Shown here: in pieces, positions 6,301-55,308 of the stretch
Numbering within the stretch: the stretch's first letter is position 1
Layout of the letters: each line of letters begins with the position of its first letter
Assembly: GCF_056712565.1 (NCBI RefSeq)
Contig: NZ_CM160072.1
Strand: one strand, 5' to 3'
Length of the DNA stretch: 64,000 nt
Translations under genes and position numbers: made by a program
The notes under the pieces: model-generated
Seen by the model: the letters and a program-made list of their open reading frames with translations, nothing else
Databases searched by the model: none
What the model was told of the DNA's origin: nothing

Positions 6301-6358
6301 TAAAACAAAAGCTATAACCCTTACGTAGCAGAGGCTTATTTAACTCACTGCCAGCGTG

Positions 6359-7333: not shown

Positions 7334-7431
7334 CCATTGGTCTGTCAGAAGAAAGTTCAGGAAGCAGACATGATTGCTCCCGGCATCCCGTCATTATCAG
7401 AGAGGATGCGGGAGGATGCCACTTTAATTAA

Positions 7432-8292
7432 CTAGTTATTAACATTAAAAAGATGGCTTACGCTTTCGGCTAACGTTGTCGTTGGGCGGCCAATCAATTT
7501 GCTAAGCGTTTTGCTGTCATCAAACAGACCGCCTTTCGATGCGCCAACGTCAGAATCCGCCAGCATATCCGCCAGTCCATCAGGCAGTCCGACGCTTTTC
7601 AGTGCCGCAGCGAAATCGGCTTCGCTCAGGTTTTGATAGGTAATCGGTTTGCCGCTCTGTTTGGTGAGTTCTGCCGCTAACTGTGTCAGTGTCCAGGCAC
7701 TATCGCCCGCCAGTTCGTAAACCTTGCCTTCATGACCGGCTTCGCTAATTACGCGCGCCGCAGCTACCGCATAATCAGCCCGCGTTGCTGAGGCAATCTT
7801 GCCATCGCCCGCGGCACCGATAAATACGCCGTGTTCCAGTGCTGCCGGGGCGCTGGCGAGGTAGTTTTCGGTGTACCAGCCGTTGCGCAGCAGAGTGTAA
7901 ACGATGCCAGAATCAGCCAGCATTTTCTCCGTCTCGATGTGCTCATCGGCGAGGCCGAGCGGGGAGGAATCGGCATGTAGCAGGCTGGTATAAGCGATAA
8001 ATTTCACGTCGGCCGCCTTTGCGGCATTAATAACATTACGATGCTGCGGGGCACGTTGACCCACTTCGCTGGAAGAGATCAGCAGTAGTTTTTCCACTCC
8101 CTGAAGCGCAGATGTCAGTGCGGCTTCATCGCCGTAATCAGCCTGACGCACGGTAATGCCTTGTGCTGTCAGTACCTGTGCTTTTGCCGGATTACGAACG
8201 ATAGCCACTATTTGGCTGGCAGGAACCGTTTTCATCAAGGATTCAATAACATAGTGACCAAGTTGGCCAGTGGCACCAGTAATAGCGATCAT
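7432..8292 (-). CDS. qorB: NAD(P)H:quinone oxidoreductase (NmrA-like)
   Basis: 286-aa ORF; N-terminal GATGQLG Rossmann motif. Confidence 0.9.
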   Translation of the reverse strand: MIAITGATGQLGHYVIESLMKTVPASQIVAIVRNPAKAQVLTAQGITVRQADYGDEAALTSALQGVEKLLLISSSEVGQRAPQHRNVINAAKAADVKFIAYTSLLHADSSPLGLADEHIETEKMLADSGIVYTLLRNGWYTENYLASAPAALEHGVFIGAAGDGKIASATRADYAVAAARVISEAGHEGKVYELAGDSAWTLTQLAAELTKQSGKPITYQNLSEADFAAALKSVGLPDGLADMLADSDVGASKGGLFDDSKTLSKLIGRPTTTLAESVSHLFNVNN

Positions 8293-40191: not shown

Positions 40192-42888
40192 ATGTTTAAA
40201 GAAATTTTTACCCGGCTCATTCGCCATTTACCTTCCCGTCTGGTTCATCGTGATCCATTGCCTGGCGCGCAGCAGACAGTGAATGCGGCGGTCCCGCCTT
40301 CTTTAAGTGCGCATTGCCTGAAAATGGCGGTGATGCCCGAAGAAGAATTGTGGAAAACGTTCGACACCCATCCGGAAGGGTTAAATCTGGCGGAAGTGGA
40401 ATCTGCCCGCGAACAACATGGTGAAAATAAATTACCCGCACAACAACCGTCGCCGTGGTGGGTACATTTATGGGTCTGCTATCGCAACCCCTTTAATATT
40501 TTGCTCACCATTCTTGGTGCTATTTCTTACGCCACGGAAGATTTATTTGCCGCAGGTGTTATCGCGCTAATGGTCGCTATTTCTACGTTGCTGAACTTTA
40601 TTCAGGAAGCTCGTTCCACCAAAGCGGCAGATGCCCTGAAAGCGATGGTCAGTAATACCGCGACGGTACTGCGAGTAATTAACGACAAAGGCGAAAATGG
40701 CTGGCTGGAGATCCCGATCGACCAGCTGGTGCCCGGCGATATTATAAAACTGGCGGCAGGGGATATGATCCCGGCAGATTTACGTATCTTGCAGGCGCGG
40801 GATCTGTTCGTCGCTCAGGCGTCGTTAACCGGTGAGTCTCTGCCCGTGGAAAAAGCCGCTACTACTCGCCAGCCGGAGCACAGCAATCCGCTGGAGTGCG
40901 ACACCCTGTGTTTTATGGGCACCACCGTGGTGAGCGGCACGGCACAAGCAATGGTGATTGCTACAGGAGCCAACACCTGGTTTGGTCAACTGGCGGGGCG
41001 TGTTAGTGAGCAGGAAAGCGAGCCGAATGCCTTTCAGCAAGGGATCAGCCGCGTCAGTATGCTGCTGATTCGCTTTATGCTGGTGATGGCTCCGGTGGTG
41101 TTGCTTATCAACGGTTACACCAAAGGCGACTGGTGGGAAGCGGCACTGTTCGCACTTTCGGTCGCGGTAGGCTTAACGCCAGAAATGTTGCCGATGATTG
41201 TTACCTCGACGCTGGCGCGTGGCGCAGTCAAGTTGTCGAAACAGAAAGTGATCGTCAAACATCTGGATGCCATTCAGAACTTTGGCGCAATGGATATTCT
41301 GTGCACTGATAAAACCGGCACCCTGACACAGGATAAAATTGTGCTGGAGAATCATACCGATATCTCCGGTAAAACTAGCGAACGCGTGCTGCATAGCGCG
41401 TGGTTGAACAGCCATTACCAGACCGGGCTTAAAAACCTGCTTGATACAGCGGTGCTCGAAGGTACGGATGAAGAGTCAGCGCGCTCGCTGGCCAGCCGTT
41501 GGCAAAAAATTGATGAGATTCCATTTGATTTCGAGCGTCGTCGGATGTCGGTGGTTGTGGCAGAAAATACCGAACACCATCAGTTGGTTTGCAAAGGCGC
41601 ATTGCAGGAAATCCTCAATGTGTGTTCGCAAGTGCGTCACAATGGCGAGATTGTACCGCTCGATGACACCATGCTGCGTAAGATTAAGCGGGTTACTGAT
41701 ACGCTGAATCGTCAGGGGCTGCGCGTGGTTGCGGTGGCGACGAAATACCTGCCAGCGCGTGAAGGAGATTACCAGCGGGCGGATGAATCCGACCTGATCC
41801 TCGAAGGATATATTGCTTTCCTTGATCCGCCAAAAGAGACAACAGCTCCGGCACTGAAGGCATTAAAAGCGAGTGGAATTACCGTAAAAATCCTTACTGG
41901 CGACAGTGAGTTGGTTGCAGCGAAAGTGTGCCATGAAGTGGGGCTGGACGCGGGAGAGGTGGTCATTGGTAGTGATATTGAAACGCTATCTGACGACGAA
42001 CTGGCAAATCTCGCACAGCGCACCACGCTGTTTGCTCGTCTGACGCCGATGCATAAAGAACGCATCGTAACGTTGCTGAAGCGCGAAGGGCATGTGGTTG
42101 GCTTTATGGGCGATGGTATTAATGATGCGCCCGCCTTGCGCGCTGCGGATATCGGCATTTCTGTGGACGGCGCGGTAGATATTGCCCGTGAAGCGGCTGA
42201 TATCATCCTGCTGGAAAAAAGCCTGATGGTGCTGGAAGAGGGGGTTATTGAGGGACGTCGCACTTTCGCCAACATGCTGAAATACATCAAAATGACGGCG
42301 AGCTCTAACTTCGGTAATGTGTTCAGCGTGCTGGTGGCGAGTGCTTTCTTGCCCTTCCTGCCGATGTTGCCGCTACACTTGCTTATTCAAAATCTGCTGT
42401 ACGATGTGTCACAGGTGGCGATCCCATTTGATAACGTCGACGACGAGCAAATTCAAAAGCCGCAGCGTTGGAATCCGGCGGATCTGGGGCGCTTTATGGT
42501 CTTCTTCGGACCGATCAGCTCGATTTTCGATATTCTGACGTTTTGCCTGATGTGGTGGGTATTCCATGCCAACACGCCGGAAACGCAAACGCTGTTCCAG
42601 TCGGGCTGGTTTGTGGTGGGCTTACTGTCGCAAACGCTGATTGTGCATATGATCCGCACCCGTCGTGTACCGTTTATTCAGAGCTGTGCATCGTGGCCGT
42701 TAATGATTATGACCGTGATCGTGATGATTGTCGGGATCGCATTGCCGTTTTCACCGCTGGCCAGTTATCTGCAGCTGCAGGCGCTGCCGTTAAGCTATTT
42801 CCCGTGGCTGGTTGCGATTCTGGCAGGGTATATGACGTTAACCCAGTTGGTGAAAGGGTTCTATAGCCGTCGTTACGGTTGGCAGTAA
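40192..42888 (+). CDS. mgtA: Mg2+-importing P-type ATPase
   Basis: 898-aa ORF; DKTGTLT phosphorylation motif and GDGINDAPAL. Confidence 0.95.
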   Translation: MFKEIFTRLIRHLPSRLVHRDPLPGAQQTVNAAVPPSLSAHCLKMAVMPEEELWKTFDTHPEGLNLAEVESAREQHGENKLPAQQPSPWWVHLWVCYRNPFNILLTILGAISYATEDLFAAGVIALMVAISTLLNFIQEARSTKAADALKAMVSNTATVLRVINDKGENGWLEIPIDQLVPGDIIKLAAGDMIPADLRILQARDLFVAQASLTGESLPVEKAATTRQPEHSNPLECDTLCFMGTTVVSGTAQAMVIATGANTWFGQLAGRVSEQESEPNAFQQGISRVSMLLIRFMLVMAPVVLLINGYTKGDWWEAALFALSVAVGLTPEMLPMIVTSTLARGAVKLSKQKVIVKHLDAIQNFGAMDILCTDKTGTLTQDKIVLENHTDISGKTSERVLHSAWLNSHYQTGLKNLLDTAVLEGTDEESARSLASRWQKIDEIPFDFERRRMSVVVAENTEHHQLVCKGALQEILNVCSQVRHNGEIVPLDDTMLRKIKRVTDTLNRQGLRVVAVATKYLPAREGDYQRADESDLILEGYIAFLDPPKETTAPALKALKASGITVKILTGDSELVAAKVCHEVGLDAGEVVIGSDIETLSDDELANLAQRTTLFARLTPMHKERIVTLLKREGHVVGFMGDGINDAPALRAADIGISVDGAVDIAREAADIILLEKSLMVLEEGVIEGRRTFANMLKYIKMTASSNFGNVFSVLVASAFLPFLPMLPLHLLIQNLLYDVSQVAIPFDNVDDEQIQKPQRWNPADLGRFMVFFGPISSIFDILTFCLMWWVFHANTPETQTLFQSGWFVVGLLSQTLIVHMIRTRRVPFIQSCASWPLMIMTVIVMIVGIALPFSPLASYLQLQALPLSYFPWLVAILAGYMTLTQLVKGFYSRRYGWQ

Positions 42889-42944
42889 AGAATAAACTGG
42901 GCATGGTGGCCCGGAATCAGATTGCAGACAAAGTGAGCTTTGTT

Positions 42945-43045
42945 CATGCCGGATGCGGCGTAAATGCCTTATCAGGCCTACAAATTCAATAAATTGCAGG
43001 AATCACGTAGGCCTGATAAGCGTAGCGCATCAGGCAATTTTGCGT
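42945..43045. repeat. REP elements
   Basis: GCCGGATGCGGCG / CTTATCAGGCCTAC units after mgtA. Confidence 0.6.
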
Positions 43046-43093
43046 TTGTCATTAGACTTAATCCGGGCATGATAGCCCGGATTTCCATCAAGA

Positions 43094-43480
43094 TTAGCGA
43101 CGAACAGCGATCGCTTCGATCTCAATCTTCACGTCTTTCGGCAGACGAGCAACTTCAACGCAAGAACGTGCCGGGAAGGTGGCGTTGTGTTCGGTGAAAA
43201 AGGCTTCGTAGGTAGCATTAACGGTTGCGAAGTCGTTCAGATCTTTCACAAACACGGTGGTTTTAACGATATCGCCCACTTTCAGGCCAGCGGCTTCGAC
43301 GATCGCTTTTACGTTATCCAGCGACTGACGTGCCTGTGCAGCGACATCTGCCGGGACTTCGCCCGTTTTCGGGTTTACCGGGATCTGACCGGAAGTGATA
43401 ATCATATTGCCCAGATCAACGCCCTGCACGTAAGGACCGATAGCTGCCGGTGCATTTTCCGTCGCGATAGTTTTGCTCAT
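43094..43480 (-). CDS. ridA: 2-iminobutanoate/2-iminopropanoate deaminase (RidA/YjgF)
   Basis: ORF 43094-43552 trimmed to Met at 43480 (MSKTIATENAPAAIGPYVQG); 128 aa. Confidence 0.9.
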   Translation of the reverse strand: MSKTIATENAPAAIGPYVQGVDLGNMIITSGQIPVNPKTGEVPADVAAQARQSLDNVKAIVEAAGLKVGDIVKTTVFVKDLNDFATVNATYEAFFTEHNATFPARSCVEVARLPKDVKIEIEAIAVRR

Positions 43481-43552
43481 GATTTCTCCTTTATTACAGC
43501 GGTAAAAAGTCTGGCTCATTATAGGGAGCCAGACTTTTATTACCAACCGCAA

Positions 43553-44014
43553 TTAATTGGCCAGCACCACATTATGGGAAAACTCTTTTTCACAGTATTT
43601 GCATTTGAGCGCGATATCATTGGCGCGTTTTCGCACGGCAAAGCTGGATGAAACCGGTTCGGCATGGCTGATACAGTTGCTGTTCGGGCAGACCAGCACA
43701 TTGTCGATGCGCTCTGGCAGACTGGGGCGCGATTTGCCAACCACTTCATAGTTGTCGATACGGTTAACCGTGGCTTGCGGTGCATATAACGCCAGCTGAT
43801 CAACCTGATCCTCACTTAAAAAGGTATTTTCGATTTTGATCAGATCCTTGCGCCCCATCTCGCCAGAAGGCAGGTTCAGACCAATGGTGATGCGCTGATC
43901 TGTTTCGGTCAACTTGAACAGACTCAACAGTTTAAAACCGATCTGGGCGGGGATATGGTCAATTACCGTGCCGCGTTTAATAGCTTCAACCTGCAATTTA
44001 TTATCGTGTGTCAT
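43553..44014 (-). CDS. pyrI: aspartate carbamoyltransferase regulatory subunit
   Basis: 153-aa ORF; C-terminal zinc-binding cysteines. Confidence 0.95.
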
Positions 44015-44026
44015 CTCTATTTCCCC

Positions 44027-44962
44027 TTACAGTACCAGATCGCGATTCAGAACCAGTGCCAGTAACGCCTGGCGAGCGAAAATCCCGTTGCCTGCTTGCT
44101 GGAAGTACCAGGCGTGAGGCGTTTTATCCACATCCGTCGCAATCTCATCAACACGCGGCAGCGGATGCAGCACTTTCATATTGGCTTTGGCGTTGTGGAG
44201 ATCGCTGGCGCGAAGAACAAACTGCGCTTTCACGTTGGCGTACTCGGACGGGTCCAGACGCTCTTTTTGCACGCGGGTCATGTACAGGATGTCTACTTCC
44301 GCCATCACTTCTTCAATAGAGCTGTGCAGACTCCAGGCGATCCCTTTTTCATCGAGCATATCCAGAATGTATTGCGGCATTGCCAGCGCATCCGGCGCGA
44401 TAAAGTAAAAACGGTTGCCGTCGAACTTCGCTAGCGCCTGGGTCAGGGAGTGAACGGTGCGGCCATATTTCAGGTCACCAACCATTGCGACGTGGAGATT
44501 GTCCAGACGCCCCTGGGTTTCCTGAATGGTGAATAAGTCCAGCAAGGTTTGCGTCGGATGTTGGTTGGAGCCATCACCGGCATTCAGTACCGGTACATTG
44601 CCGGAAAACTCGGTGGCCAGGCGCGCTGCACCTTCCTGCGGATGACGCATCACTATCGCATCGACGTAAGTGCTGATAACCGAAATGGTATCGGCCAGCG
44701 TTTCGCCCTTTTTACCCAGTGATGTATTGGCGCTGTCGGAGAAGCCCACCACGCTGGCACCCAGGCGGTGCATGGAAGTTTCGAAAGAGAGGCGGGTGCG
44801 GGTAGAGGCTTCGAAGAAACAGCTGGCAATAACTTTGTGCTTCAACAGCTCTGGTTGCGGGTTCGCTTTCAGTTTCGCCGCTGTCGCCAGCACCAGATTA
44901 AGGTCATCGCGACTAAGGTCGTTTATGGAAATGATATGTTTCTGATATAGCGGATTAGCCAT
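44027..44962 (-). CDS. pyrB: aspartate carbamoyltransferase catalytic subunit
   Basis: 311-aa ORF; STRTR carbamoyl-phosphate binding motif. Confidence 0.95.
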
Positions 44963-44965
44963 CTT

Positions 44966-45100
44966 TTATCTCCTGACGCCTGGGCAAAAAAAAGCCCCTC
45001 GATTGAGGGGCTGGGAATGGGTGATCAACGGGAAGAAAAACGGCAGGCCAGCGTCTTTTTTCAGACGCGGTAAGACAAAATGTCGAACACACTGAACCAT
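44966..45100 (-). CDS. pyrL: pyrBI operon leader peptide
   Basis: Hand translation MVQCVRHFVLPRLKKDAGLPFFFPLITHSQPLNRGAFFCPGVRR (44 aa) immediately upstream of pyrB. Confidence 0.85.
   Translation of the reverse strand: MVQCVRHFVLPRLKKDAGLPFFFPLITHSQPLNRGAFFCPGVRR
44986..45012 (-). terminator. pyrBI attenuator terminator
   Basis: AGCCCCTC-gatt/aatc-GAGGGGCT hairpin followed by T8 on the minus strand, inside pyrL. Confidence 0.75.
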
Positions 45101-45189
45101 ACATCCTCCCGGCAAATTGTCCGGCATTATACTCAGCTCTGAGAGAGGATCAAGAAGATGATGCAGTTATAAAGCAAGGCAAACGGTTA

Positions 45190-45678
45190 TCATGAATATA
45201 TATTCAATTTTAATAAGTAATTAATTTGCTTGTGCACCAGGGCTGTACGCTTTACCACACGTGGTGCGACCCAAACGATATTGCTGCCAGCAATCACGCC
45301 AAGAATTTCTGGCAAAGCATGGAAATCAAGGATTCGTGCTACTGCCCGACCATATCCGGCGACGGTATGGATAAGGATAAATTCACCATTATGCTCGACA
45401 CTCAGGACCATTTCAGCGACGGATCGACCTGCGTCAGGTGTGGGAAGTAATTGAGGATTCACCGAATAAATTTTTTGTCCTTTTGTATTTCTAATTTTTA
45501 TGACTCCCAGCAATTTCAGTAGTCGTGAAACGGTTGACTGACTGATACTGTCAAAGCCATGGTTTTGCAAATCGCGGCGGATTTCCTCCTGTGAAAGATA
45601 ACTTTTTTCGGTAATCAGGCGCTGACAGACCGCCAGTTGCTTCTTTTCTTTGGCGGAGTAATCATCGTATTCCTTCAT
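45190..45678 (-). CDS. ArgR-family transcriptional regulator (ADI cluster-associated)
   Basis: ORF 45190-45744 trimmed to Met at 45678 preceded by AAAGGTG; ArgR-like DNA-binding region (SQSTVSRLLK...IRNTKGQ) and C-terminal oligomerisation region. Confidence 0.75.
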   Translation of the reverse strand: MKEYDDYSAKEKKQLAVCQRLITEKSYLSQEEIRRDLQNHGFDSISQSTVSRLLKLLGVIKIRNTKGQKIYSVNPQLLPTPDAGRSVAEMVLSVEHNGEFILIHTVAGYGRAVARILDFHALPEILGVIAGSNIVWVAPRVVKRTALVHKQINYLLKLNIYS

Positions 45679-45793
45679 AATGCACCTTTTATTTATTATT
45701 ACCTGATGATATTTTTCACATTTTATAATGTGAGAGTGGTTCATTTATCACTACACCAGATTTGAAGGCCGCTTTGATAAGCGGCCTGTCGCG

Positions 45794-47197
45794 TTAAATC
45801 ATCGCGGCGATACTCAGCACAATCATATTCAACATCGTGAGAATCAGCAGTAGCGGTGCTACCCATCTCAGATAACGGACCCAGGGTACACGGGCAATCG
45901 CCAGACCGCCCATCACTACCGCAGAGGTTGGCGTAATCAAATTAACCACCCCGGAAGCAGACTGATAAGCGGTCACCACCAGATCGCGTTGTACATGAGC
46001 AAAATCAGCGAGTGGAGCCATTATTGGCATCGTTAACACTGCAAGGCCGGAAGATGAGGGAACCAGAAAAGAGAGCAATACTTCCAGCCAATAGGTCACG
46101 TTGATGAAAACAGTGGTGGAAAGCCCTGAAACCAGATTCTCAGCACTGTGCAGAATTGTGTGCGTAATCATGCCGTTATCCATCACGACCACAATACCGC
46201 GGGCGATGCCGATAATCAGTGCCACACCAAGGAGATCCCGCGCGCCGTCAATAAAGGTACTGGTGAAGGTTTCTTCGCCCATGCGGGCAATGACACCCAC
46301 GATGACCGCAGCTGCCAGAAAGACAGCAGAGATTTCCGCCATCCACCAACCCAGTACCGCTACGCCGTAAATCATAAAGGCAAAGGATGCAGCAAAAAGT
46401 ATCAGGATCGCTTTGCGCGTGGGGGTAAATTCCAGCATCGTTTCTGAACGATTTCCCAGAAAATGCGCCTGGTTTTCAGCCATCTTATCCGCCACGATAG
46501 AGCTTTCCGGACTGTTGCGAACTTTGCGGGCATAACGCATAACCCAGTAAACACAAATCACGTAGCCTACTAACAGCAAAATAACACGCAGCAAAATGCC
46601 CTGAGTAAAGGGGATCCCTGCGGCGTTGGCAGCAATGACGGTAGCAAATGGGTTAATGGTTGAGCCCAGCGTGCCAATGCCCGATCCCAATAACACTGTG
46701 GCGGCAGCGACCAGAGGATCAAAGCGGGCAGCCATCATGACGGGCACCAGCAACGTGTAGAAGGGGAGTGATTCTTCCGCCATCCCATAAATAGTACCGC
46801 CAGCAGCGAAGAGCGCCATCAGGATCGGAATCATCCACTCTTCCCGACCATTAAGGCGAGTTGTCACTCGTTCGATACCGGCATCTATTGCTCCGGTTTT
46901 ATTTACTACTCCCAAAAATCCACCGATGATCAGGACAAACAGCGCGACATCAATCGCTCCCGCAGTGTAGGTTTGATGGTTGTACAAGCCGTCGATGGGC
47001 GCTAACAGGACAGCCGTAATACCCTGTGGTTGCGCCTCAACAGGTGCGTAAGTGCCTGCAACAGGAACTTCCTTTCCCAGTGCGGCATTTGTCACCATCT
47101 GATATTTTCCCGCAGGTACAATCCAGGTCATTGCCGCAACTAACGCAATCAGCACGAACAAGATGGTATAAGCGGTGGGAAATTTGAATTTACCCAT
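45794..47197 (-). CDS. membrane carrier, probably YfcC/DcuC-type anaerobic carrier family; putative arginine/ornithine exchanger of the ADI cluster
   Basis: ORF 45794-47242 trimmed to Met at 47197 preceded by GGAGA; highly hydrophobic multi-TM protein; family assignment from sequence recall only. Confidence 0.7.
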   Translation of the reverse strand: MGKFKFPTAYTILFVLIALVAAMTWIVPAGKYQMVTNAALGKEVPVAGTYAPVEAQPQGITAVLLAPIDGLYNHQTYTAGAIDVALFVLIIGGFLGVVNKTGAIDAGIERVTTRLNGREEWMIPILMALFAAGGTIYGMAEESLPFYTLLVPVMMAARFDPLVAAATVLLGSGIGTLGSTINPFATVIAANAAGIPFTQGILLRVILLLVGYVICVYWVMRYARKVRNSPESSIVADKMAENQAHFLGNRSETMLEFTPTRKAILILFAASFAFMIYGVAVLGWWMAEISAVFLAAAVIVGVIARMGEETFTSTFIDGARDLLGVALIIGIARGIVVVMDNGMITHTILHSAENLVSGLSTTVFINVTYWLEVLLSFLVPSSSGLAVLTMPIMAPLADFAHVQRDLVVTAYQSASGVVNLITPTSAVVMGGLAIARVPWVRYLRWVAPLLLILTMLNMIVLSIAAMI

Positions 47198-47253
47198 AAT
47201 GTGATCTCCATAATCACGGGCATACGCCACTCGTCGACGCATGCCCGTCAGGG

Positions 47254-48258
47254 TTAGTCGCCGAGAGTTGCTACCATCACCGCTTTAATGGTGTGCATCC
47301 GGTTTTCTGCTTCATCGAAAACAATGGAGTGGGCAGATTCAAAAACCTCATCAGTTACTTCCAGTCCTTTGAGGCCGTAGGCCATCTCGATCTCGCGTCC
47401 TACTGTGGTGTGCTCATTATGGAAGGCGGGCAGGCAGTGCATAAATTTGACTTCAGGGTTACGCGTGGCAGTAATCACCTGTTGATTGATCTGATAAGGT
47501 GTCATAAGACTCACTCGTTCTGCCCAGGCTTCTTTTGGCTCTCCCATCGAAACCCAAACATCCGTATAGAGAAAATCAACGTCGTATACGCCTTCTTCCA
47601 CATCCTCTGTCAGGGTGATTCTCGCCCCAGTCACGCTGGCGATCTCACGGCATTGTGTTACCAGCGCTTCATCTGGCCAGAAAGATTTTGGTGCCACCAG
47701 ACGGATATCCATCCCCATTTTTGCAGCACCAACCATCAGCGAGTTCCCCATGTTATTTCGGGCATCACCAAGATACGCAAAGCTCAGCTCTGGCAGCGTT
47801 TTGCCTGGCGCATGTTCCAGCATGGTCATTAAATCCGCGAGGATCTGTGTCGGGTGAAATTCATTGGTCAGTCCGTTCCATACCGGAACACCAGCGAACT
47901 CACCTAATTCTTCAACGATATTCTGACCATAACCGCGATACTCAATACCGTCATACATGCGTCCGAGTACGCGAGCGGTATCTTTCATTGATTCTTTATG
48001 GCCGATTTGTGAGCCGCTGGGGCCGATGTAAGTCACCTGCGCACCTTGATCAAAGGCCGCGACTTCAAAGGCACAGCGGGTACGGGTAGAGGATTTTTCA
48101 AAAATCAACGCAATGTTTTTACCGACCAGCGTTTGTTTTTCGTTTCCAGATTTCTTGGCGGCTTTAAGATTGATAGCCAAATCAATCAGGTATTGAATCT
48201 CTGCTGGGGTGTAATCAAGCAGCTTAAGAAAATTACGGTTTTTCAGTGAAGTAGCCAT
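47254..48258 (-). CDS. ornithine carbamoyltransferase (ADI-cluster copy, ArgI-like)
   Basis: ORF 47254-48285 trimmed to Met at 48258 preceded by AAGGA; STRTR and HCLP motifs; high similarity to argI product at 51620-52624. Confidence 0.85.
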
Positions 48259-48268
48259 GGGGATGTCC

Positions 48269-49213
48269 TTATAAAAATGGATCAAGCGTGGTTATGGGGG
48301 TATCAAGGCGAATAAGAGTGCCTTTGTCTCCGGCGAGAATTTCCGGACCATCTGCAAGAGAGCCGATCCCTGCAATGCCCCGGCACTGACTAACAAACTT
48401 TGCGCAGGCGGTGACTTTCGGCCCCATAGACCCGGCATCAAACTGCATTTCGTTGAGTAATTCCGGCGTGACCTGGGCCAGCGGGCGTTGGGTTGGCTTG
48501 CCCCAGTCGAGATATACTGCGTCCGCATCAGTGAGGATCAACAAGGCGTCAGCATGGATCTGACTTGCCAGTAGCGCGGCTGAAAGATCTTTGTCGATAA
48601 CCGCTTCAATCCCATGGTATCCATCGGCTTTTTCAACCACCGGAACACCACCGCCACCATTACAGATCACCAGATGATCGTGGGCGATCAGTGTCTGGAT
48701 GGCATCCCGCTCGACGATGCGTTTAGGTTGTGGAGAAGGTACGACCCGGCGGAAAGAGTGACCATCTGCTTTGAAAACCCAGCCTTTTTCTGCCTGTAGT
48801 ACCTGAGTCTGAGCGTGGTCATAAATTGGGCCGATGTACTTAGTTGGGTTACTGAAGGCGGGATCGTTGGCATCCACTTCAACCTGCGTCAGCAGAACGC
48901 TGATTTCACGTTGTGGTAGTTGATTTTTCAGCGCCTGTTGTAGCATGTAGCCGATCATCCCCTGGCTTTCGGCCCCCAGAATGTCGAGTGGATAGGGAGC
49001 GACATGGGCATAGGCGCTATTTTGAAGTGCCAGAAGTCCAACTTGTGGACCATTCCCGTGAACCAGTACAACCCGCCAGTGTTGAGTCAGTTGGGCGATA
49101 GTTTTAGCCGCAAGATCGATATTTTTACGTTGGATTTCTGCTTCGAGTGGTTCGCCTCGTTTAAGCAGGGCATTACCGCCGAGAGCGATAACCAGTGTTG
49201 GTTTGTTTTCCAT
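48269..49213 (-). CDS. carbamate kinase
   Basis: ORF 48269-49237 trimmed to Met at 49213 preceded by AAGGAAG; carbamate kinase-like sequence ([10 protein letters not shown]...). Confidence 0.85.
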
Positions 49214-49223
49214 GATCTCTTCC

Positions 49224-50447
49224 TTAGATACCGTCACGATGCAAAGGGCAACTCATGCAACGTGCGCCGCCACGTCCGCGGCCTAATTCATCACCGGGGA
49301 TGGGTAAAACGGTGATGCCTGCTTTGTCATATTTTTCGTTAGTCCAGATGTTGCGCTCGTAGCCCACTACCACTCCCGGCCGAAGCGTGAGCACATTGTT
49401 AGCGTCATTCCACTGTTCGCGTTCTGCCTCAAAGGCATCACCCCCCGTGGTGATTAAACGTACCTGGTCAATACCGAGGGCTTTTTCGATAGCATGGAGG
49501 AGTGTGCTTTCTTGAGTACGTTTCAGGCCGCCGTGACCGTCAGGTGTTAGCGTCCAGCAATTAACATCCGGGCGCACAACTTCGGGATAAACCGAGAAGG
49601 TGTCGATATCGATATGAGTCATAACGGTGTCAAGATGCATACAGGAGCGGTGTTTAGGCAGCTCAACAGCGATTACCCGTTCAGCCTGACGATGTTTAAA
49701 CAATGCCTGAGCAAGAAACTCGATTCCTTGTGGCGTGGTGCGTTCAGACATGCCGATCAACACGGCCCCCCGACCAATCACCAGCACATCACCACCTTCT
49801 AACGTGGCGTGGTCATAATTAATATTCTCGTCGCCGAAATATTTAATAAATTCGCCGCCAGCAAATTGTGGATGCCAGCGATAAATAGCGCGTAGATTAT
49901 TGGTTTCACGTTGGCGAGCAGGTTTTGCCATTGGATTAATCGATACACCGTTATAAATCCAGCATGAGGTATCACGCGTAAATAAATGATTCGGTAACGG
50001 CTTCATAATGAAATCATTAATATCGTGGGTATCAACCACCATATTTTTAATTGAGGCGGGAATTTCACTATAAGTCAGCCCACCACTTAAATGACGAGCA
50101 AGGTCCCGGTGTGACATCTCTGCAAGCCAGGTGCGAACGTCAGTAGCAAACGTAGGGCCGAGTCGGTAATCTGATATTTGTGTTTCCAGTAACCAGCTTT
50201 TGGCTTCCGGGATATCCAATGTTTGTGTTAGTAAATCAGTGAGTAACAGAACTTCTATCCCTTGCTGGCGCAGCGTATTGGCGAAAATATCATGCTCTTC
50301 ACCTGCCCGCTCAACGGACAATACATCGTCAAATAACAACTCCTGGCAATTGGATGGTGTTAGACGTTTCAGACTGAGATTTGGGCGATGCAACATAACG
50401 CTGCGTAGTTGTCCAATTTCAGAACCAACATAATGCTTTTCCATCAT
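49224..50447 (-). CDS. arginine deiminase
   Basis: 407-aa ORF; amidinotransferase-family sequence with C-terminal catalytic Cys region (RCMSCPL). Confidence 0.85.
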
Positions 50448-50567
50448 TATTCCTTTAACACTTTTTCAAAAATAAAGAGGAGATGGCTGCAAACAAATTA
50501 AATGCTTGTAGTCAGGTCTGTTCAGTAATTTTCAGATGCAATGATTCAGTTTATTTCTTCCAGAAAA

Positions 50568-50583
50568 TGTGACGACTTTCACA
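50568..50583. promoter_or_regulatory. perfect CRP consensus site TGTGA-N6-TCACA upstream of the ADI operon
   Basis: TGTGACGACTTTCACA read directly, about 120-135 bp upstream of the arginine deiminase start. Confidence 0.5.
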
Positions 50584-51094
50584 CCAGTGATGATATTAAT
50601 AATCGCAGTTAATAATATTTGATGCGGTTCTGATAAATGATAAAGAAACAAAATACGATAATGCATTAATACGCAAATATACGCAGAGTTATTCTTCGTT
50701 GTTAATTGATTGTTTTATTTTTCAGGAAATGCCTTTAAGTATAAAGCATTGATATTTATGTATATTTTAATATTCATTGCATATCTATGCGAAAGAATAA
50801 GGTGATTATTTTTCACAGCACTATTTTCACGGGATAACTATGACAGCACGGGCATTAAAAGCTAAGAAAATGAACTGTGATCTGACTGAGAGTTTTCTTT
50901 TAACATATGCAATAACAAGATATTAGGACCAAAATACATAGCTAAGTTATAAGATTTATGCAGCAAAACTGCATACAAAATTACTCCTGCTTAACATCAG
51001 TACAACATCTCCAGCAATAAACATGCGCAAGGGCAAAACCTGATGATTTTTCTATGGTGAGAGGTGGCTTTTTTTCGTATAAGGAAAGAAGTGA

Positions 51095-51574
<480 letters not shown>

Positions 51575-51583
51575 GTGATCACT

Positions 51584-51613
51584 GCCGGGGGGCGACCTGT
51601 GCCGCCGCCCGGC
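51584..51613. terminator. GC-rich hairpin between convergent tabA and argI
   Basis: GCCGGGGGGCG ... CGCCGCCCGGC stem with one mismatch. Confidence 0.45.
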
Positions 51614-51619
51614 AAAACG

Positions 51620-52624
51620 TTATTTTGCTAATGTAGCGACCATAACAGCTTTTATGGTGTGCATCCGGTTTTCTGCCTGGTCAAAGACAATACTTGCCGG
51701 AGATTCAAAGACTTCATCGGTGACTTCCATTCCACCATACAGACCGAATTCTGCGGCCATTTTTTTACCCAGCGTGGTTTGCTCATCATGAAATGCAGGC
51801 AGACAGTGGAGGAACTTAACCTGCGAATTACCGGTCAGGGCCATCATTTTGCTATTCACCTGATAGTCACGCAGCAGGGCAATACGCTCCGCCCATTTCT
51901 CTTTGGGCTCACCCATCGATACCCAGACATCGGTATAGATAAAGTCTGCACCTTTAACCCCAGAGGCGATATCTTCCGTCAAGGTGATTTTACCCCCGTG
52001 TTTTTGTGCCAGAGCACTGCATTCGGCGACCAGCGCAGCTTCCGGCCAGCATGCCTGTGGCGCGACCAGACGCAAATCCAGACCGGTAAGCGCCGCAGCT
52101 TCGAGCATCGAATTGCCCATGTTGTTACGCGCGTCACCTGCATAGACCAGCGTCATTTCGTTGAATGCTTTGCCGGGCAAATGCTCCTGCATGGTGAGGA
52201 GATCCGCCAGCAGCTGCGTGGGGTGGAACTCATTGGTCAGGCCGTTCCATACTGGCACGCCAGCGTATTCCGCCAGTGTTTCGACAATCTCCTGACCATA
52301 GCCGCGATACTGAATACCGTCATACATGCGACCAAGCACGCGGGCAGTGTCTTTAATCGACTCTTTGTGACCAATCTGGCTGCCGCTTGGGCCGAGATAA
52401 GTAACGCGAGCACCCTGGTCATATGCGGCAACTTCGAAAGAGCATCGGGTACGGGTCGAGTCTTTTTCGAAGATGAGCGCGATGTTTTTGCCAGTGAGTC
52501 TGGCTTCTTCTTTACCGCTTTTCTTATCGGCTTTCAGCTTCGCGGCTAACTGCAACAAGCTGTTGAGTTCAGCTGGCGTGAAATCGAGTAATTTCAGGAA
52601 ATGCTTATGATAAAACCCGGACAT
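51620..52624 (-). CDS. argI: ornithine carbamoyltransferase (anabolic)
   Basis: ORF 51620-52828 trimmed to Met at 52624 ([13 protein letters not shown]); 334 aa; ARG boxes upstream. Confidence 0.9.
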
Positions 52625-52647
52625 AGATCCCTCCTGTGGCCAACGCC

Positions 52648-52690
52648 TTAATGAATTAAAATTCAATCTATATGGATGATTATTCATTTG
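52648..52690. promoter_or_regulatory. tandem ARG boxes (ArgR operator) in argI promoter
   Basis: AATGAATTAAAATTCAAT then TGGATGATTATTCATT, matching the TGAAT-N4-ATTCA pattern, 24-66 bp upstream of argI ATG. Confidence 0.55.
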
Positions 52691-52785
52691 CAAGTCTAAA
52701 GCATAAATCTTTGTCACAAAGGTGGAGGCAATGTCAGTGGTGTGTGACAATAAGAGTATCGGCAGGACATTAAGAGGAATGAGCC

Positions 52786-53202
52786 ATGGCAAACCCGGAA
52801 CAACTGGAAGAACAGCGTGAAGAAACACGTTTGATTATTGAAGAATTACTGGAAGATGGCAGCGATCCGGACGCGCTGTACACCATCGAACACCATCTTT
52901 CCGCAGACGATCTGGAAACCCTGGAAAAAGCAGCAGTTGAAGCGTTTAAACTCGGTTACGAAGTGACCGATCCAGAAGAGCTGGAAGTTGAAGATGGTGA
53001 CATCGTGATTTGCTGCGACATCCTCAGCGAGTGTGCGTTGAATGCCGACCTGATCGATGCCCAGGTTGAACAACTGATGACGCTGGCGGAGAAATTTGAC
53101 GTTGAGTACGATGGTTGGGGCACTTACTTTGAAGATCCTAACGGCGAAGACGGCGACGATGAAGATTTTGTCGATGAAGACGATGACGGTATTCGTCACT
53201 AA
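52786..53202 (+). CDS. rraB: RNase E inhibitor RraB
   Basis: 138-aa ORF, very acidic C-terminus. Confidence 0.9.
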
Positions 53203-53224
53203 TTAAGCGTTGACGACAAAGGCT

Positions 53225-53315
53225 GCGTTACCTGATGCGCTACGCATATCAGGCCCAGGTAGTTCCTGCAACCTGGTGAATTTGTAGCCCGGATAAGGCA
53301 TTTACGTCACATCCT
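53225..53315. repeat. REP elements
   Basis: CCTGATGCGCTACGCATATCAGGCC / GTAGCCCGGATAAGGCA units after rraB. Confidence 0.5.
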
Positions 53316-53378
53316 GCATACTCAAAAAGCACGTGGTTAATGTTCGAATGCCCGCGAGTCTAAGCTCGCGGGCATTTT

Positions 53379-53900
53379 TCAAAGTTTGCGTAGCATCCGT
53401 ACTTCACAATCGACATGACCCGTGCAGCCAAGCGCATAGTCGATATGCTCAAAGCCCAAATGCTCATAAAGCGCAATGGCTTCCTTTAAAAAAGCGGTCG
53501 TTTCCAGATAGCAGCGTTTGAAACCCATTTCTCGCGCCTGCTCCATTGCCATTAAGGCCAGTTTTTTTGCCAGCCCTTTGCCGCGGATAGCCGGAAGAAA
53601 ATACATCTTTTGCAGTTCGCAAATGTCTGACTCACTCCCGGTTAATGGCGCAATCCCACCGCCGCCGACCACTTCACCCTCGTACTCAACCACCCAATAT
53701 GCGTGGCCAGGCTGACTATATACTTGATACAGCTCGTCAAGGTTCGGATCGGCGACGGTGTAGCCTTTATCAGCGGTAAGACCGTATTCGGCGGATACCT
53801 GACGAATGACGTGGGCGATAGCAGGATTATCGGCGACGGTAAGTTTGCGCAAACGGAGTGCGGGAGAAGCGACAACATTCATAGCATAGCTCAATTTCAA
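53379..53900 (-). CDS. yjgM: GNAT-family N-acetyltransferase
   Basis: 173-aa ORF (start could be Met at 53882); acetyl-CoA binding motif (RGKGLAKKL). Confidence 0.8.
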
Positions 53901-54074
53901 ATGTATGATTTATAGCTCACTTTAATACCACCCTCGCTTAGGTGGTGCAAGAAGAAGATAAATCAGAAAATATTACGCATATCTCTCTGAGATAAAGCGT
54001 ATTCTAGGCGAACCAGTATCAATTGACTGGAATTATTATCGGTATGAATGGAATTTATTTTAGGGATATAGTTC

Positions 54075-55262
54075 ATGAATGATGTAAACATCGGGAAAGA
54101 TAATTCTCGGCACTCGTTTGTTTTCACAGGCAAAGGTGGTGAGTATTTTCTTATTTGTCTTGTGAATTTTTCACTGACAATTATTACTCTGGGAATATAT
54201 GGACCGTGGGCATTGATAAAATGCCGTCGTTATATTTATCAACATGTGACACTCAAGGGGCAACCATTTAGTTATAAGGGAACAGGTGGTGCCATTTTTG
54301 TTAGCATGTTACTTATTGTGGTGGTTTATCTTCTCAGTATTTCTTGTTTTGCAGGTCAACACTTTGCGCTCGGTTTATTCCTGTTTGCTCTCTTGATCTG
54401 CGGTATTCCTTGTATGGCAGTGAAGAGTCTGCAGTATCAGGCGAACATGACCTCACTGAATGACATTCGCTTTGGCTTTAACTGCTCAATGATGCGTGCA
54501 TGGTGGGTTATGCTAGGACTGCCTGTTCTGTTGGCGTTAGTTTTTTGGTTCGCACTGTATCTTATTGCACAAGTGACGACATCGATAGGAGGGTTATTCT
54601 TTAACTTAGTCGCATTAAGTTTGCTTTCTGCCATCGGGCTAGGTGTTGTCCATGGTATAACCTATAGTAAATGGATGCCATTGCTGGGTAATAATGCAAC
54701 TTTTGGCATTCATAAGTTTTCTATTCAGGTAAACGTAAAAGAATGCATTAAAGGTTGCATGCTCGCAATATTAACCATGGTTCCTTTCATCATTGTGATT
54801 GGTATTATGATCGCACCAGTATTCCAGCAGTTAATGATGATGACCATGTTGGGTAGGTCTGATGCTGGCAGTGAGTTTGTATTACAATATTACCCGCAGA
54901 TTATGGCTTCTTATTTCCTGTATTTTGTCGCGATCCTTGTTTTTGCCAGTTATCTCTATGTCACGTTACGCAATCTGTTTTTGAATAATCTGACGCTGGC
55001 AAATGGGACAATTCGTTTTCATTCATCTGTTACCGCGATCGGTATGCTTCTGCGCATGTTGGCGGTATTAATGGGGTCCTCAATTACCTGTGGTCTGGCT
55101 TATCCCTGGCTGAAAATGTGGATGGTTAGCTGGATTGCTAACAATACCCATGTCCAGGGCGACCTTGATTCGCTGGAGTTAACCAATGATGACAAACCGC
55201 AGGATAGCGGTTCGTTAATGTGGATATCTCGCGGTATTATGCCGTATGTTCCGTTTATCTAA
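54075..55262 (+). CDS. yjgN: inner membrane protein YjgN (DUF898)
   Basis: 395-aa hydrophobic ORF. Confidence 0.85.
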   Translation: MNDVNIGKDNSRHSFVFTGKGGEYFLICLVNFSLTIITLGIYGPWALIKCRRYIYQHVTLKGQPFSYKGTGGAIFVSMLLIVVVYLLSISCFAGQHFALGLFLFALLICGIPCMAVKSLQYQANMTSLNDIRFGFNCSMMRAWWVMLGLPVLLALVFWFALYLIAQVTTSIGGLFFNLVALSLLSAIGLGVVHGITYSKWMPLLGNNATFGIHKFSIQVNVKECIKGCMLAILTMVPFIIVIGIMIAPVFQQLMMMTMLGRSDAGSEFVLQYYPQIMASYFLYFVAILVFASYLYVTLRNLFLNNLTLANGTIRFHSSVTAIGMLLRMLAVLMGSSITCGLAYPWLKMWMVSWIANNTHVQGDLDSLELTNDDKPQDSGSLMWISRGIMPYVPFI

Positions 55263-55269
55263 ATAAAAA

Positions 55270-55297
55270 GGCCGGAGCATGCTCCGGCCTTCGTTTT
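55270..55297. terminator. bidirectional intrinsic terminator between yjgN and valS
   Basis: Perfect palindrome GGCCGGAGCATGCTCCGGCC flanked by A-run and TTCGTTTT. Confidence 0.65.
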
Positions 55298-55308
55298 CAC
55301 TATGAGTA

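Follow-up and report, generated by a model that had tools for sequence, protein, structure and literature searches.

Chromosomal arginine deiminase (ADI, arc) clusters have been described in both Salmonella and Escherichia coli. Salmonella enterica carries STM4467-STM4466-STM4465-STM4464-STM4463 in the slot between pyrBI and tabA/argI, and in 2008 a ~5-kb islet spanning STM4463(rosE)-STM4467 was reported from all Salmonella and from uropathogenic E. coli (PMC2328253). At the same locus E. coli Nissle 1917, uropathogenic and other B2 strains possess an arc operon of the order arcA-arcC-arcB-'arcD'-arcR. Its Nissle genes CIW80_16600-16615 (YfcC, OTC, arcC, arcA) are among the most highly expressed genes unique to that strain (PMC11610980), and deletion of arcA-arcC-arcB-arcD-arcR changed gut colonisation as well as growth, over a range of initial pH values, in media supplemented with arginine, while an inducible arc copy in Nissle changed the pH of the culture (PMC10659395). 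Another arc operon resides on plasmids of ESBL-producing E. coli; according to PMC7671891, which cites Billard-Pomares et al. 2019, it was a disadvantage when mice were colonised in the gut and an advantage in urinary-tract infection. Further points of reference are the arcA-arcB-arcC-arcE cluster of Streptococcus pneumoniae and arcDABC of Pseudomonas aeruginosa.

The window analysed here is a stretch of 64,000 nucleotides of E. coli DNA, 100% identical at this locus to the HS13-1 chromosome, on which RefSeq annotates all five genes discussed below. In the ORF list of the window, positions 45190-50447 hold five intact, co-directional minus-strand genes. With the likely start codons, which agree with the RefSeq calls in HS13-1, they and their neighbors are laid out as follows:

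44966-45100: pyrL, the flank on the pyrBI side, with pyrB beyond
45190-45678, minus strand: arcR/rosE orthologue, ArgR paralogue (162 aa; longest ORF to 45744)
45794-47197, minus strand: YfcC/DcuC-family carrier, ArcE type (467 aa)
47254-48258, minus strand: ornithine carbamoyltransferase (OTC; arcB by position, RefSeq name argF; 334 aa)
48269-49213, minus strand: arcC, carbamate kinase (314 aa)
49224-50444, minus strand: arcA, arginine deiminase (406 aa; another ATG possible at 50447)
51122-51574, plus strand: tabA (yjgK), the flank on the other side, an allele linked to the arc haplotype

The intergenic gaps measure 10 bp (arcA-arcC), 10 bp (arcC-OTC), 56 bp (OTC-carrier) and 115 bp (carrier-regulator). 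We consider it highly probable that the cluster consists of a chromosomal ADI operon, arcA-arcC-OTC-carrier, and, behind it and transcribed on its own, the gene of an ArgR-paralogue regulator, arcR, orthologous to rosE/STM4463. The original prediction had named the same five functions, the 10-bp spacing of the three enzyme genes and the flanks pyrBI-pyrL and tabA, and all of this is borne out by the ORF coordinates and by family searches, in which arginine deiminase, carbamate kinase and OTC models, Pfam DcuC and the Pfam ArgR domains were matched. Its statement that K-12 carries yjgH-bdcA-bdcR here was also right, as these are the genes between pyrL and tabA in MG1655. The pathway had been judged an already described one, and the literature agrees: the operon is described and annotated in E. 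coli and Salmonella, and the observation is real but ordinary. What the present analysis contributes is the synteny across Enterobacterales, the counts among E. coli genomes, the residue losses in the ArgR paralogue and the elements of the control region.

The comparable Salmonella cluster that had been anticipated is present at the equivalent locus (see also PMC2328253): the five genes, their order and their slot agree with the window, the proteins are 86-95% identical, and the control region matches in length and conserved blocks; it differs in having 77-81% nucleotide identity, a species-level divergence. From the operon of Nissle 1917, uropathogenic and other B2 strains nothing material sets the window apart, and in Nissle CIW80_16600-16615 lie 12 locus tags past cybC, as in the window. 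The plasmid operon of ESBL-producing E. coli matches in its five genes and their order, but nucleotide identity gene by gene is only 71-79%, megablast aligns only arcA-arcC (~77%), and IS1 and IS66 flank the operon, which was counted at 297 plasmid places, on plasmids of the IncF type. Since it is nearest to Enterobacter cloacae-complex chromosomes (86.5%), its origin is different from that of chromosomal arc.

The three enzymes all score above curated family cut-offs. ArcA, for which RefSeq also uses the label arcA, scores 531 bits against TIGR01078 (cut-off 489) and 617 bits against NF002381, and aligns full length with P. aeruginosa ADI 1RXX (404 bits), its RCMSCP and MHLDT segments falling on HCMTCP and MHLDT of that enzyme (the Cys and His motifs). 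ArcC reaches 514 bits with NF009008 (cut-off 361), 382 bits with TIGR00746 (cut-off 358) and 336 bits against the PDB carbamate kinase 8crv. The OTC passes NF003286 (544 bits, cut-off 515) and TIGR00658 (439 bits, cut-off 281), is 69% identical to the window's own ArgI, and scores higher with E. coli ArgI (524 bits) than with the P. aeruginosa catabolic OTC 1dxh (480 bits). With the anabolic ArgI as its nearer relative of the two, it owes its proposed catabolic role to gene context only. That context comprises an arginine deiminase gene, OTC and carbamate kinase genes adjacent to it, and, in the role of arcD or arcE, a predicted exchanger gene of the DcuC/YfcC family within the cluster. P. aeruginosa arcDABC encodes the same three enzymes, but its carrier is an APC-family ArcD unrelated to that of the window (17% identity to ArcE).

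The carrier had been called YfcC/DcuC-type rather than an APC-type ArcD, and the family scores support this. Residues 6-464 match Pfam DcuC PF03606 with 385 bits, and the cluster contains no APC-family gene. Against the NCBIfam equivalog 'putative basic amino acid antiporter YfcC' (NF008611) it reaches 286 bits, below the cut-off of 500, so that it is a YfcC paralogue and should not be named YfcC; E. coli YfcC itself is ruled out on the same score. No solved structure for the carrier was detectable by sequence. The Nissle publication calls this protein 'arcD' and searched for it with K03758, a model of the APC family that does not fit the window's carrier (PMC10659395). The original prediction held that the exchanged substrate was not obvious, but the question is not really open, since Noens and Lolkema showed that the non-APC ArcE of S. 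pneumoniae exchanges arginine, ornithine and citrulline, and found arcE in 22 of 39 gamma-proteobacterial arc clusters (PMC5300872). The pneumococcal protein (TC 2.A.118, Ion Transporter superfamily) is linked to ours indirectly, through the annotation of its gene as yfcC / C4-dicarboxylate anaerobic carrier and through those 22 gamma-proteobacterial clusters with arcE; its cluster differs in phylum, in the length of the carrier (503 aa), and in gene order and regulators. In 80 species, arc clusters with four different gene orders contain an orthologue 72-91% identical to the window's carrier, and a copy with 62% identity adjoins arcA-argF-arcC on a Brucella anthropi plasmid. By analogy with ArcE we infer an arginine/ornithine(/citrulline) exchanger, for which electroneutral exchange is predicted.

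ArcR contains both Pfam ArgR domains, the N-terminal winged-helix Arg_repressor PF01316 and the C-terminal oligomerisation domain Arg_repressor_C PF02863, and is 84-89% identical to the Salmonella and Citrobacter genes at the same position. Since it scores below the cut-offs of the ArgR models (110 bits with NF003457, cut-off 194; 101 bits with TIGR01529, cut-off 130), it is best described as an ArgR paralogue; these scores and the absence of the Asp128/Asp129 pair led us to reject ArgR proper. The SQSTVSR helix, with the DNA-reading SR motif, is retained, and ArgR Asp128/Asp129/Thr130 are replaced by Ser/Asn/Ile (ArgR GTIAGDDTIF, GVIAGSNIVW here, GVVAGSSIVW in orthologues). In all, five ligand-contact positions are changed (Gln106Arg, Thr124Val, Asp128Ser, Asp129Asn/Ser, Thr130Ile), and none of the aligned Enterobacteriaceae orthologues keeps the aspartate pair. 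Choi et al. 2012, by its title, reportedly places ADI expression under the control of STM4463, which is said to be an activator. In ArgR, Asp128 forms the salt bridge to the guanidinium group of arginine, and the Arg-Asp pairs that line its binding site are described as extremely conserved in orthologues of ArgR (PMC2880562). ArcR would thus probably not sense arginine in the way ArgR does.

The regulatory elements of the locus are listed below; strand is given where one applies.

45193-45206: perfect ARG-box core TGAATATATATTCA; it overlaps the stop codon of arcR and lies 87 bp upstream of the pyrL ATG
45767-45786, minus strand: GC-rich stem-loop GGCCGCTT-ATCA-AAGCGGCC, just 3' of the carrier stop codon, read from sequence
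50445-51121: divergent control region between arcA and tabA, 677 bp, AT-rich (30-36% GC)
50484-50514, minus strand: hairpin in the predicted arcA leader (RNAalifold)
50541-50546, minus strand: candidate -10-like hexamer AATCAT (TAnnAT in most genera), its columns conserved in alignment A1
50568-50583: predicted CRP-type site TGTGA-N6-TCACA, ~130 bp upstream of the arcA ATG
50701-50715, plus strand: ArcA-P-box-like sequence GTTAATTGATTGTTT, 12/15 consensus matches, in a conserved block

In 10 other genera the control region has kept a length of 665-678 bp and separate blocks of conserved sequence, and no Rfam family was found in the window's 677 bp. The motif TGTGA-N6-TCACA has its sole perfect match in the 64-kb window here, where 0.16 were expected, but at least one match arose in 14 of 100 shuffles, so the count alone is weak; across 36 orthologous regions, seven of the eight positions of GTGA-N6-TCAC never vary, and the remaining one is kept in at least 90% of them. 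Arc operons are generally activated by a Crp/Fnr-family protein, and the predicted site is of the CRP type, not the FNR/ANR type. We infer that AATCAT may be the -10 of the arcA promoter, which would put the CRP-type site near -41.5, in class II geometry. The Salmonella sequence matching the ArcA-P-box-like element, GTTAATTATTTGTTT, has been predicted as an ArcA site for STM4467 (PMC3848847). In the leader hairpin, RNAalifold draws five pairs with compensatory changes in all; in an extended helix of eight pairs, seven are changed on both sides and none of 500 shuffles reaches the score. Pairing holds in 81% of cells, and in 83% over two helices tested together, versus 34-50% with the partner slid. 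The window's own leader forms six of the eight pairs and, folded as a single sequence, does not stand out (z = 0.22). As assignments, the promoter, the CRP and ArcA sites and the hairpin stay predictions from sequence patterns. In other genera the carrier-arcR gap holds a hairpin or a REP element, and the stem-loop after the carrier stop codon suggests that arcR has its own promoter, which fits the phenotype of the rosE -40 insertion (PMC2328253). Only two perfect ARG-box cores occur in the window, TGAATATATATTCA and the argI operator at 52652-52665 (a positive control); the former recurs at the same place in Salmonella, Citrobacter, Enterobacter, Kosakonia and further genera, and its right half is retained in K-12.

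The cluster is present in 596 of 5426 complete E. coli genomes (~11%, about one in nine), against 4771 with the K-12 cassette and against all sequenced serotype genomes in Salmonella (PMC2328253). Copies at least 99% identical occur in 593 records, including ST131, F11 and APEC O2:K1:H7; 90% of pks-positive genomes have the cluster, and the window's tabA allele, there named 'tabA_2', co-segregates with arc genes in a published pangenome table (PMC8545132). The order argI-tabA-arcA-arcC-OTC-carrier-arcR-pyrB-pyrI-ridA recurs in Citrobacter, Salmonella, Enterobacter, Kosakonia, Lelliottia, Buttiauxella and Rahnella; Tatumella and Erwinia share this order with no tabA match, and in Aeromonas and Vibrionaceae arc adjoins pyrBI or ridA. 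Because slot and order are conserved across Enterobacterales and arc lies beside pyrBI in Aeromonas and Vibrionaceae, the cluster looks ancestral at this locus, and the yjgH-bdcA-bdcR cassette that would have replaced it in most E. coli looks derived. The synteny comparison thus upholds one part of the original wording, that the content is strain-variable, but its 'island' and 'accessory block' are misleading, as the slot is syntenic in many Enterobacterales genera and mobility genes and repeats are missing.

Three other readings deserve consideration. That the cluster is a horizontally acquired island which entered a B2-type lineage, and not an ancestral cluster lost elsewhere, we think unlikely. 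Its presence in a minority of complete E. coli genomes would suit such an entry, but slot and gene order are common to many genera, and no close donor appears among 100,044 species representatives (best match 78.5%, C. koseri). The divergent segment does reach past arc: tabA has only 75% nucleotide identity to its K-12 counterpart, the 3' part of argI has ~80%, and a crossover lies within argI at ~52033, a pattern that resembles a recombination tract; yet between E. coli and Salmonella the arc genes (77-81%) have diverged on par with the flanking core genes (80-86%). We found no mobility genes, integrase, tRNA, IS or flanking repeats around the cluster, and thus neither these hallmarks of a genomic island, nor an attachment site, nor atypical coding composition: coding GC is ~50%, as in the flanks, and the AT-rich parts are arcR and the control region only. 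K-12, moreover, has a remnant of the ARG box at the arcR end. Another arc operon, distinct from this one, is indeed mobile on plasmids that carry IS elements, and Escherichia sp. MOD1-EC7003 carries arc genes 78-82% identical to the window's, as distant as those of Salmonella, between flanks 93-96% identical. Such a divergent copy in similar flanks points to at least one replacement by recombination at the locus and, on this sequence comparison, complicates the reading of ancestral retention that we otherwise prefer.

As for the regulator, it is doubtful that ArcR is a conventional arginine-sensing repressor that switches the operon with arginine through canonical ARG boxes. The two ArgR domains, the SR motif and the perfect ARG box at the arcR stop codon fit that idea, as does RosE, a DNA-binding repressor at the std promoter (PMC2328253); the five altered ligand contacts do not, and upstream of arcA there is no canonical ARG-box core (up to two mismatches), the conserved boxes there reading TGCRT-N4-ATKCA. 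A carrier that is no arginine/ornithine exchanger, in a cluster serving mainly citrulline catabolism (carrier, OTC and carbamate kinase) or the supply of carbamoyl phosphate to pyrBI/argI, seems to us very improbable. Citrulline is likewise an efficient substrate of ArcE, and a short pathway starting from it has been proposed (PMC5300872); but the intact arcA is always the first gene, tightly coupled to arcC and OTC, and the Nissle deletion and inducible copy acted on growth with arginine and on culture pH (PMC10659395). The ArgI-like OTC, the position between two other users of carbamoyl phosphate, pyrB and argI, and YfcC-family members outside arc clusters, e.g. on E. faecium plasmids, also speak for this reading; the window's carrier subfamily, however, accompanies arcA in four gene orders and on an alpha-proteobacterial plasmid.

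We therefore keep to an ADI operon with an ArcE-type exchanger. The steps of the pathway are established. The carrier would bring L-arginine in and let L-ornithine out; ArcA would hydrolyse arginine to citrulline and ammonia; OTC would phosphorolyse citrulline to ornithine and carbamoyl phosphate; and ArcC would pass the phosphate of the latter to ADP, giving ATP, CO2 and a second ammonia, a net yield per arginine of one ATP and two ammonia. Transcription of the operon would start at a class II promoter with the CRP-type site, and ArcA-P, as well as ArcR or ArgR at TGCAT/ATTCA-type boxes, would add to its control. Conversion of arginine in vivo to ornithine, two NH3, CO2 and ATP is predicted by analogy with the published work on the same locus in Nissle 1917. 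On this reading, the arc operon would give its host energy without oxygen and raise the pH.

Arginine deiminase (ADI) operons convert arginine into ATP and ammonia without oxygen and provide pH buffering. Open reading frames were listed over 42000-54000, with the start codons of RefSeq for an identical strain, and they bear out the five co-directional minus-strand genes of the original prediction at the same coordinates, together with the 10-bp gaps between arcA and arcC and between arcC and the ornithine carbamoyltransferase (OTC) gene. The OTC-carrier gap is 56 bp and the carrier-arcR gap 115 bp.

Genes of the arc cluster (open reading frames with RefSeq starts)
49224-50444, minus strand: arcA, arginine deiminase
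48269-49213, minus strand: arcC, carbamate kinase
47254-48258, minus strand: OTC gene, ornithine carbamoyltransferase
45794-47197, minus strand: membrane carrier, 467 aa
45190-45678, minus strand: arcR, ArgR-like gene

The products of the first three genes all exceed the curated NCBIfam cut-offs. The carrier reaches 286 bits against the YfcC model (equivalog cut-off 500) and ArcR 110 bits against the ArgR model (cut-off 194), and both are therefore paralogues of E. coli YfcC and ArgR rather than those proteins themselves. In Pfam the carrier is a DcuC protein (PF03606, 385 bits), and ArcR has both ArgR domains. The ArcA enzyme aligns over its full length with the Pseudomonas aeruginosa ADI 1RXX, with the Cys- and His-containing motifs matched up, and ArcC and OTC match solved carbamate kinases and ornithine carbamoyltransferases. 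OTC shares 69% identity with the ArgI of the window and resembles E. coli ArgI more closely than it does the catabolic enzyme of P. aeruginosa, so that its catabolic role rests on gene context. With pyrB, the arc OTC gene and argI, three paralogous transcarbamoylases lie within 8.6 kb.

The ADI system is already on record: it has been described and annotated, and worked on experimentally, in closely related strains. Over 44900-51200 the sequence matches the E. coli HS13-1 chromosome at 100% identity, with all five genes annotated there, and what remains of the window belongs to the ordinary core of E. coli, running from ytfB via mgtA to valS and lptFG. In E. coli Nissle 1917, CIW80_16600-16615 encode a YfcC family protein, OTC, ArcC and ArcA, lie 12 locus tags past cybC and are among the most highly expressed unique genes of that strain (PMC11610980); their position relative to cybC agrees with the window layout. 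In Nissle, deletion of arcA-arcC-arcB-‘arcD’-arcR, or expression of the four structural arc genes from an inducible promoter, altered how the strain grew across pH, the pH of its cultures and its colonisation of the gut (PMC10659395). Chessa et al. renamed the Salmonella islet regulator, the orthologue of ArcR, rosE; in their report RosE is a DNA-binding repressor of std fimbriae, and the islet occurs in every sequenced Salmonella serotype genome and, within E. coli, in uropathogenic strains but not in others (PMC2328253). Salmonella virulence has been linked to STM4467 and STM4463, according to papers citing Choi et al. 2012, and the E. coli literature describes for this operon a trade-off between gut colonisation and urinary-tract infection. 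The observation behind the original prediction was real and its interpretation essentially right: it had called the pathway described rather than new, and the published and annotated copies agree.

Among 5426 complete E. coli genomes the chromosomal arc cluster is found in 596 and yjgH-bdcA-bdcR, the K-12 cassette, in 4771, which makes the locus nearly two-state in this species. The statement of the original prediction that K-12 has yjgH-bdcA-bdcR here holds for MG1655, where these genes lie between pyrL and tabA. Copies of the arc cluster are at least 99% identical in 593 records, and carriers include ST131, F11, APEC O2:K1:H7 and the probiotic A0 34/86. In a published pangenome table, the arc genes, a ‘tabA_2’ allele and ‘yfcC_2’ occur in 90% of pks-positive and about 7% of pks-negative genomes, and bdcA and bdcR follow the mirror pattern (PMC8545132). 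A second version of the operon, with the same gene order, lies between IS1 and IS66 (2846-8088 in locus L002, from plasmid pEc-050-T0_2). It is 71-79% identical to the window gene by gene, megablast aligning arcA-arcC only, at about 77%, and it occupies 297 plasmid and about 60 chromosomal places. Its nearest relatives are chromosomes of the Enterobacter cloacae complex (86.5%), and it is presumably the plasmid operon of Billard-Pomares et al. 2019, as cited in PMC7671891.

The difference from K-12 extends beyond the cluster. High identity to K-12 stops near the pyrBI -10 region (about 45135-45188), and alignment restarts some 50 bp upstream of tabA at only 75%. The tabA gene (51122-51574) is 75% identical to the K-12 allele, a level of divergence found between genera, and the last ~400 bp of argI (51620-52032) are ~80% identical; from about 52033, inside argI, identity is 97-97.5%. 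The two haplotypes therefore differ over ~7 kb, and the jump at about 52033 implies that recombination crossed over within argI and that the two haplotypes have long persisted as a block. The window lacks yjgL (1.8 kb in K-12, between tabA and argI) at 51575-51619, and its tabA-argI spacing of 45 bp is that of most other genera examined.

Further variation was seen outside this block. The yjgN gene (54111-55400, YjgN family) is a second divergent allele in the window: most of it shows 67-80% identity to K-12, beside a valS at 97%. Upstream of ytfB, 1-2363 looks like further strain-variable content, holding a frameshifted sugar-phosphate isomerase/epimerase gene, a 3-ketoacyl-ACP reductase gene and an intact TetR/AcrR regulator gene (RefSeq, identical strain). 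The intervals 42928-43017, after mgtA, and 53231-53327, in the rraB-yjgM gap, look like REP-type intergenic repeats, each being 79-82% similar, in inverted orientation, to the K-12 counterpart of the other.

Is the cluster a foreign insertion, or is it ancestral in this slot? A scan with the carrier, one genome per species, gave 80 loci, onto which 13 window proteins were mapped by tblastn. The order argI-tabA-arcA-arcC-OTC-carrier-arcR-pyrB-pyrI-ridA(-mgtA) was recovered in many Citrobacter species, Salmonella diarizonae and the Escherichia lineage MOD1-EC7003, and also in Enterobacter, Kosakonia, Lelliottia, Pseudescherichia, Buttiauxella and Rahnella; in Tatumella and Erwinia mallotivora it is kept, with no tabA match by tblastn. 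The slot between pyrBI and tabA/argI is thus common to many Enterobacterales genera. In Aeromonas the arc genes adjoin an inverted argR-like gene and pyrIB, and in Vibrionaceae they adjoin ridA, pyrBI or rraB. In Vibrio sp. Of7-15 (locus L070, 7682-18900) two arcA copies flank the carrier; arcC, OTC, pyrB, pyrI, an argR-like gene and ridA come next, and rraB lies upstream. The neighbourhood of arc, pyrBI, ridA and rraB therefore extends into Vibrionales.

Absence from most E. coli is what an insertion would produce, and the original prediction spoke of a strain-variable island. Strain-variable the cluster is, by the genome counts; the island part is misleading, given a slot conserved across genera and no mobility genes or flanking repeats at the cluster. 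Nucleotide identity to Salmonella is 77-81% for the arc genes and 80-86% for flanking core genes, no close copy was found among species representatives (best 78.5%, C. koseri), and coding GC is ~50%, like the flanks. Upstream of pyrL, K-12 keeps only the right half of the ARG box that lies over the arcR stop codon in the window, plus the adjoining AACCGTTTGC. Together, the Salmonella-like divergence, the missing close copy, the lack of mobility genes and repeats, the GC content and the K-12 remnant argue against foreign insertion. Direct or inverted repeats as integration scars were considered and rejected, the sole long repeat reflecting OTC/argI paralogy. The simplest reading is that the cluster is ancestral in its slot and that most E. 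coli probably have a derived replacement. In MOD1-EC7003 (locus L010, 6665-12100), the arc genes in the same slot are 78-82% identical to those of the window and 83-86% to those of Citrobacter, although its flanking genes match E. coli at 93-96%. The locus has thus undergone one or more replacements by recombination, and these identities are evidence of a between-genus allelic replacement of the entire cluster.

The original prediction was also right that the carrier is not an APC-family ArcD, its matches being to the YfcC/DcuC family. An unrelated carrier, ArcE (TC 2.A.118, Ion Transporter superfamily), is found instead in about half of the arc clusters of bacteria, 22 of 39 in gamma-proteobacteria among them, and ArcE of S. 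pneumoniae exchanges arginine and ornithine with micromolar affinity and also moves citrulline (Noens and Lolkema, PMC5300872). Carrier orthologues 72-91% identical lie inside arc clusters in 80 species and at least four gene orders, a context that agrees with an ArcE-type exchanger, and a Brucella anthropi plasmid has a 62% identical copy adjoining arcA-argF-arcC. A YfcC homologue on E. faecium plasmids (37% identity) was rejected as an arc carrier, lying outside any arc cluster; since the family has such members, arginine/ornithine exchange is a substrate assignment that we infer for a probable ArcE-type protein. A large protein search with the carrier returned close relatives only and did not reach S. 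pneumoniae ArcE, and a PDB sequence search gave no match and thus no solved structure detectable by sequence. Published ‘arcD’ searches using an APC-family model will miss the true carrier in enterics.

The arcA-tabA spacer is 677 bp long with 30-36% GC, and in ten other genera it measures 665-678 bp and retains discrete conserved blocks.

Candidate control elements
50484-50514: leader hairpin, sequence varying between clades with pairing kept
50568-50583: CRP-type site TGTGA-N6-TCACA, sole perfect match in the 64-kb window
22 bp downstream of the CRP-type site: TAnnAT element, which would centre the site near -41.5
50701-50715: ArcA-P-box-like sequence, candidate
near 50669-50682 and 50779-50792: TGCRT-N4-ATKCA boxes, conserved blocks
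near 50955-50974: palindrome TATGCA-N8-TGCATA, conserved block
45193-45206: perfect ARG-box core TGAATATATATTCA, over the arcR stop codon, 87 bp upstream of the pyrL start

The perfect CRP-type match is weak as a count, because 14 of 100 shuffles also matched; conservation is the stronger argument: of the eight positions in GTGA-N6-TCAC, seven do not vary across 36 sequences and the other is kept in at least 90%. With the TAnnAT element it may form a class II promoter, the usual geometry at Crp/Fnr-activated arc promoters (a general statement, PMC4813224). The Salmonella counterpart of the ArcA-P-box-like sequence was predicted as an ArcA site for STM4467, with modest array effects (PMC3848847). 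No canonical ARG box was found upstream of arcA at up to two mismatches in the 14-bp core, and no FNR site (TTGAT-N4-ATCAA) was seen by eye in the alignment of the control region. Conserved small ORFs in the 677 bp were rejected, conservation being patchy like binding motifs and unlike a reading frame, as was a conserved operator in the carrier-arcR gap, which is variable and has REP elements in several genera. Just upstream of tabA (51040-51121) lies a block, TCGTATAA...TGAAAC-NN-TGTTTTA, kept in K-12 and every genus examined; it probably serves as promoter or operator of tabA.

For the leader hairpin, RNAalifold gave five pairs, all with compensatory changes, and in the extended helix 7 of 8 pairs changed on both sides, these changes falling mainly between three or four clades and so representing few independent events. 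The two leader helices together have 83% of alignment cells paired, versus 34-50% with the partner slid, and none of 500 shuffles reached the score. The window's own leader forms 6 of 8 pairs, and its single-sequence fold is no stabler than shuffled sequence (z = 0.22). When 44900-51700 was scanned against Rfam with a permissive E-value, the arc leader gave no match, and the only two matches, both sub-threshold, fell on the pyrBI attenuator. A second helix, which would sequester the Shine-Dalgarno sequence (CCTTT with AAAGG), was set aside; it is paired in 86% of cells with no both-side changes and is thus uninformative.

ArcR keeps the SQSTVSR DNA-reading motif and differs from ArgR at the ligand pocket (Gln106Arg, Thr124Val, Asp128Ser, Asp129Asn, Ser in most orthologues, and Thr130Ile). 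In ArgR, Asp128, Asp129 and Thr130 contact the ligand, Asp128 through a salt bridge to the arginine guanidinium group, and the pocket Arg-Asp pairs are extremely conserved among orthologues (PMC2880562). From these substitutions and pocket roles, we infer that ArcR lacks canonical arginine sensing and probably differs from ArgR in its response to arginine, if it has one. No statement on a non-canonical arginine response of ArcR was found in the literature covered, two key papers lying outside that coverage. The ARG-box core at the arcR stop is conserved at the same spot across Enterobacteriaceae and might link ArgR/ArcR binding to pyrLBI read-through or to the pyrBI promoter.

A joint reading of these elements is offered tentatively, as we consider it rather unlikely to hold as a whole. 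Enteric ADI operons would then follow an undescribed control logic, in which ArcR, without the arginine-binding Asp pair, would be blind to arginine and act at the TGCRT-N4-ATKCA boxes, alongside a class II promoter that depends on CRP, a site for ArcA-P and a leader hairpin of conserved structure, and the canonical ARG box over the arcR stop codon would couple the operon end to the pyrBI promoter. On the same reading, Enterobacterales, Aeromonadales and Vibrionales would share argI-arc-pyrBI as a carbamoyl-phosphate supercluster of ancient origin, from which the K-12 arrangement would be derived by deletion and replacement.

In conclusion, what is added here is modest and mostly inferential: ancestral synteny, a two-state locus, an ArcE-type carrier, an ArgR paralogue without the Asp pair and conserved control elements. 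None of these points alters the understanding of the ADI pathway; for E. coli, the arc operon is a marker of B2 and pks-positive lineages.
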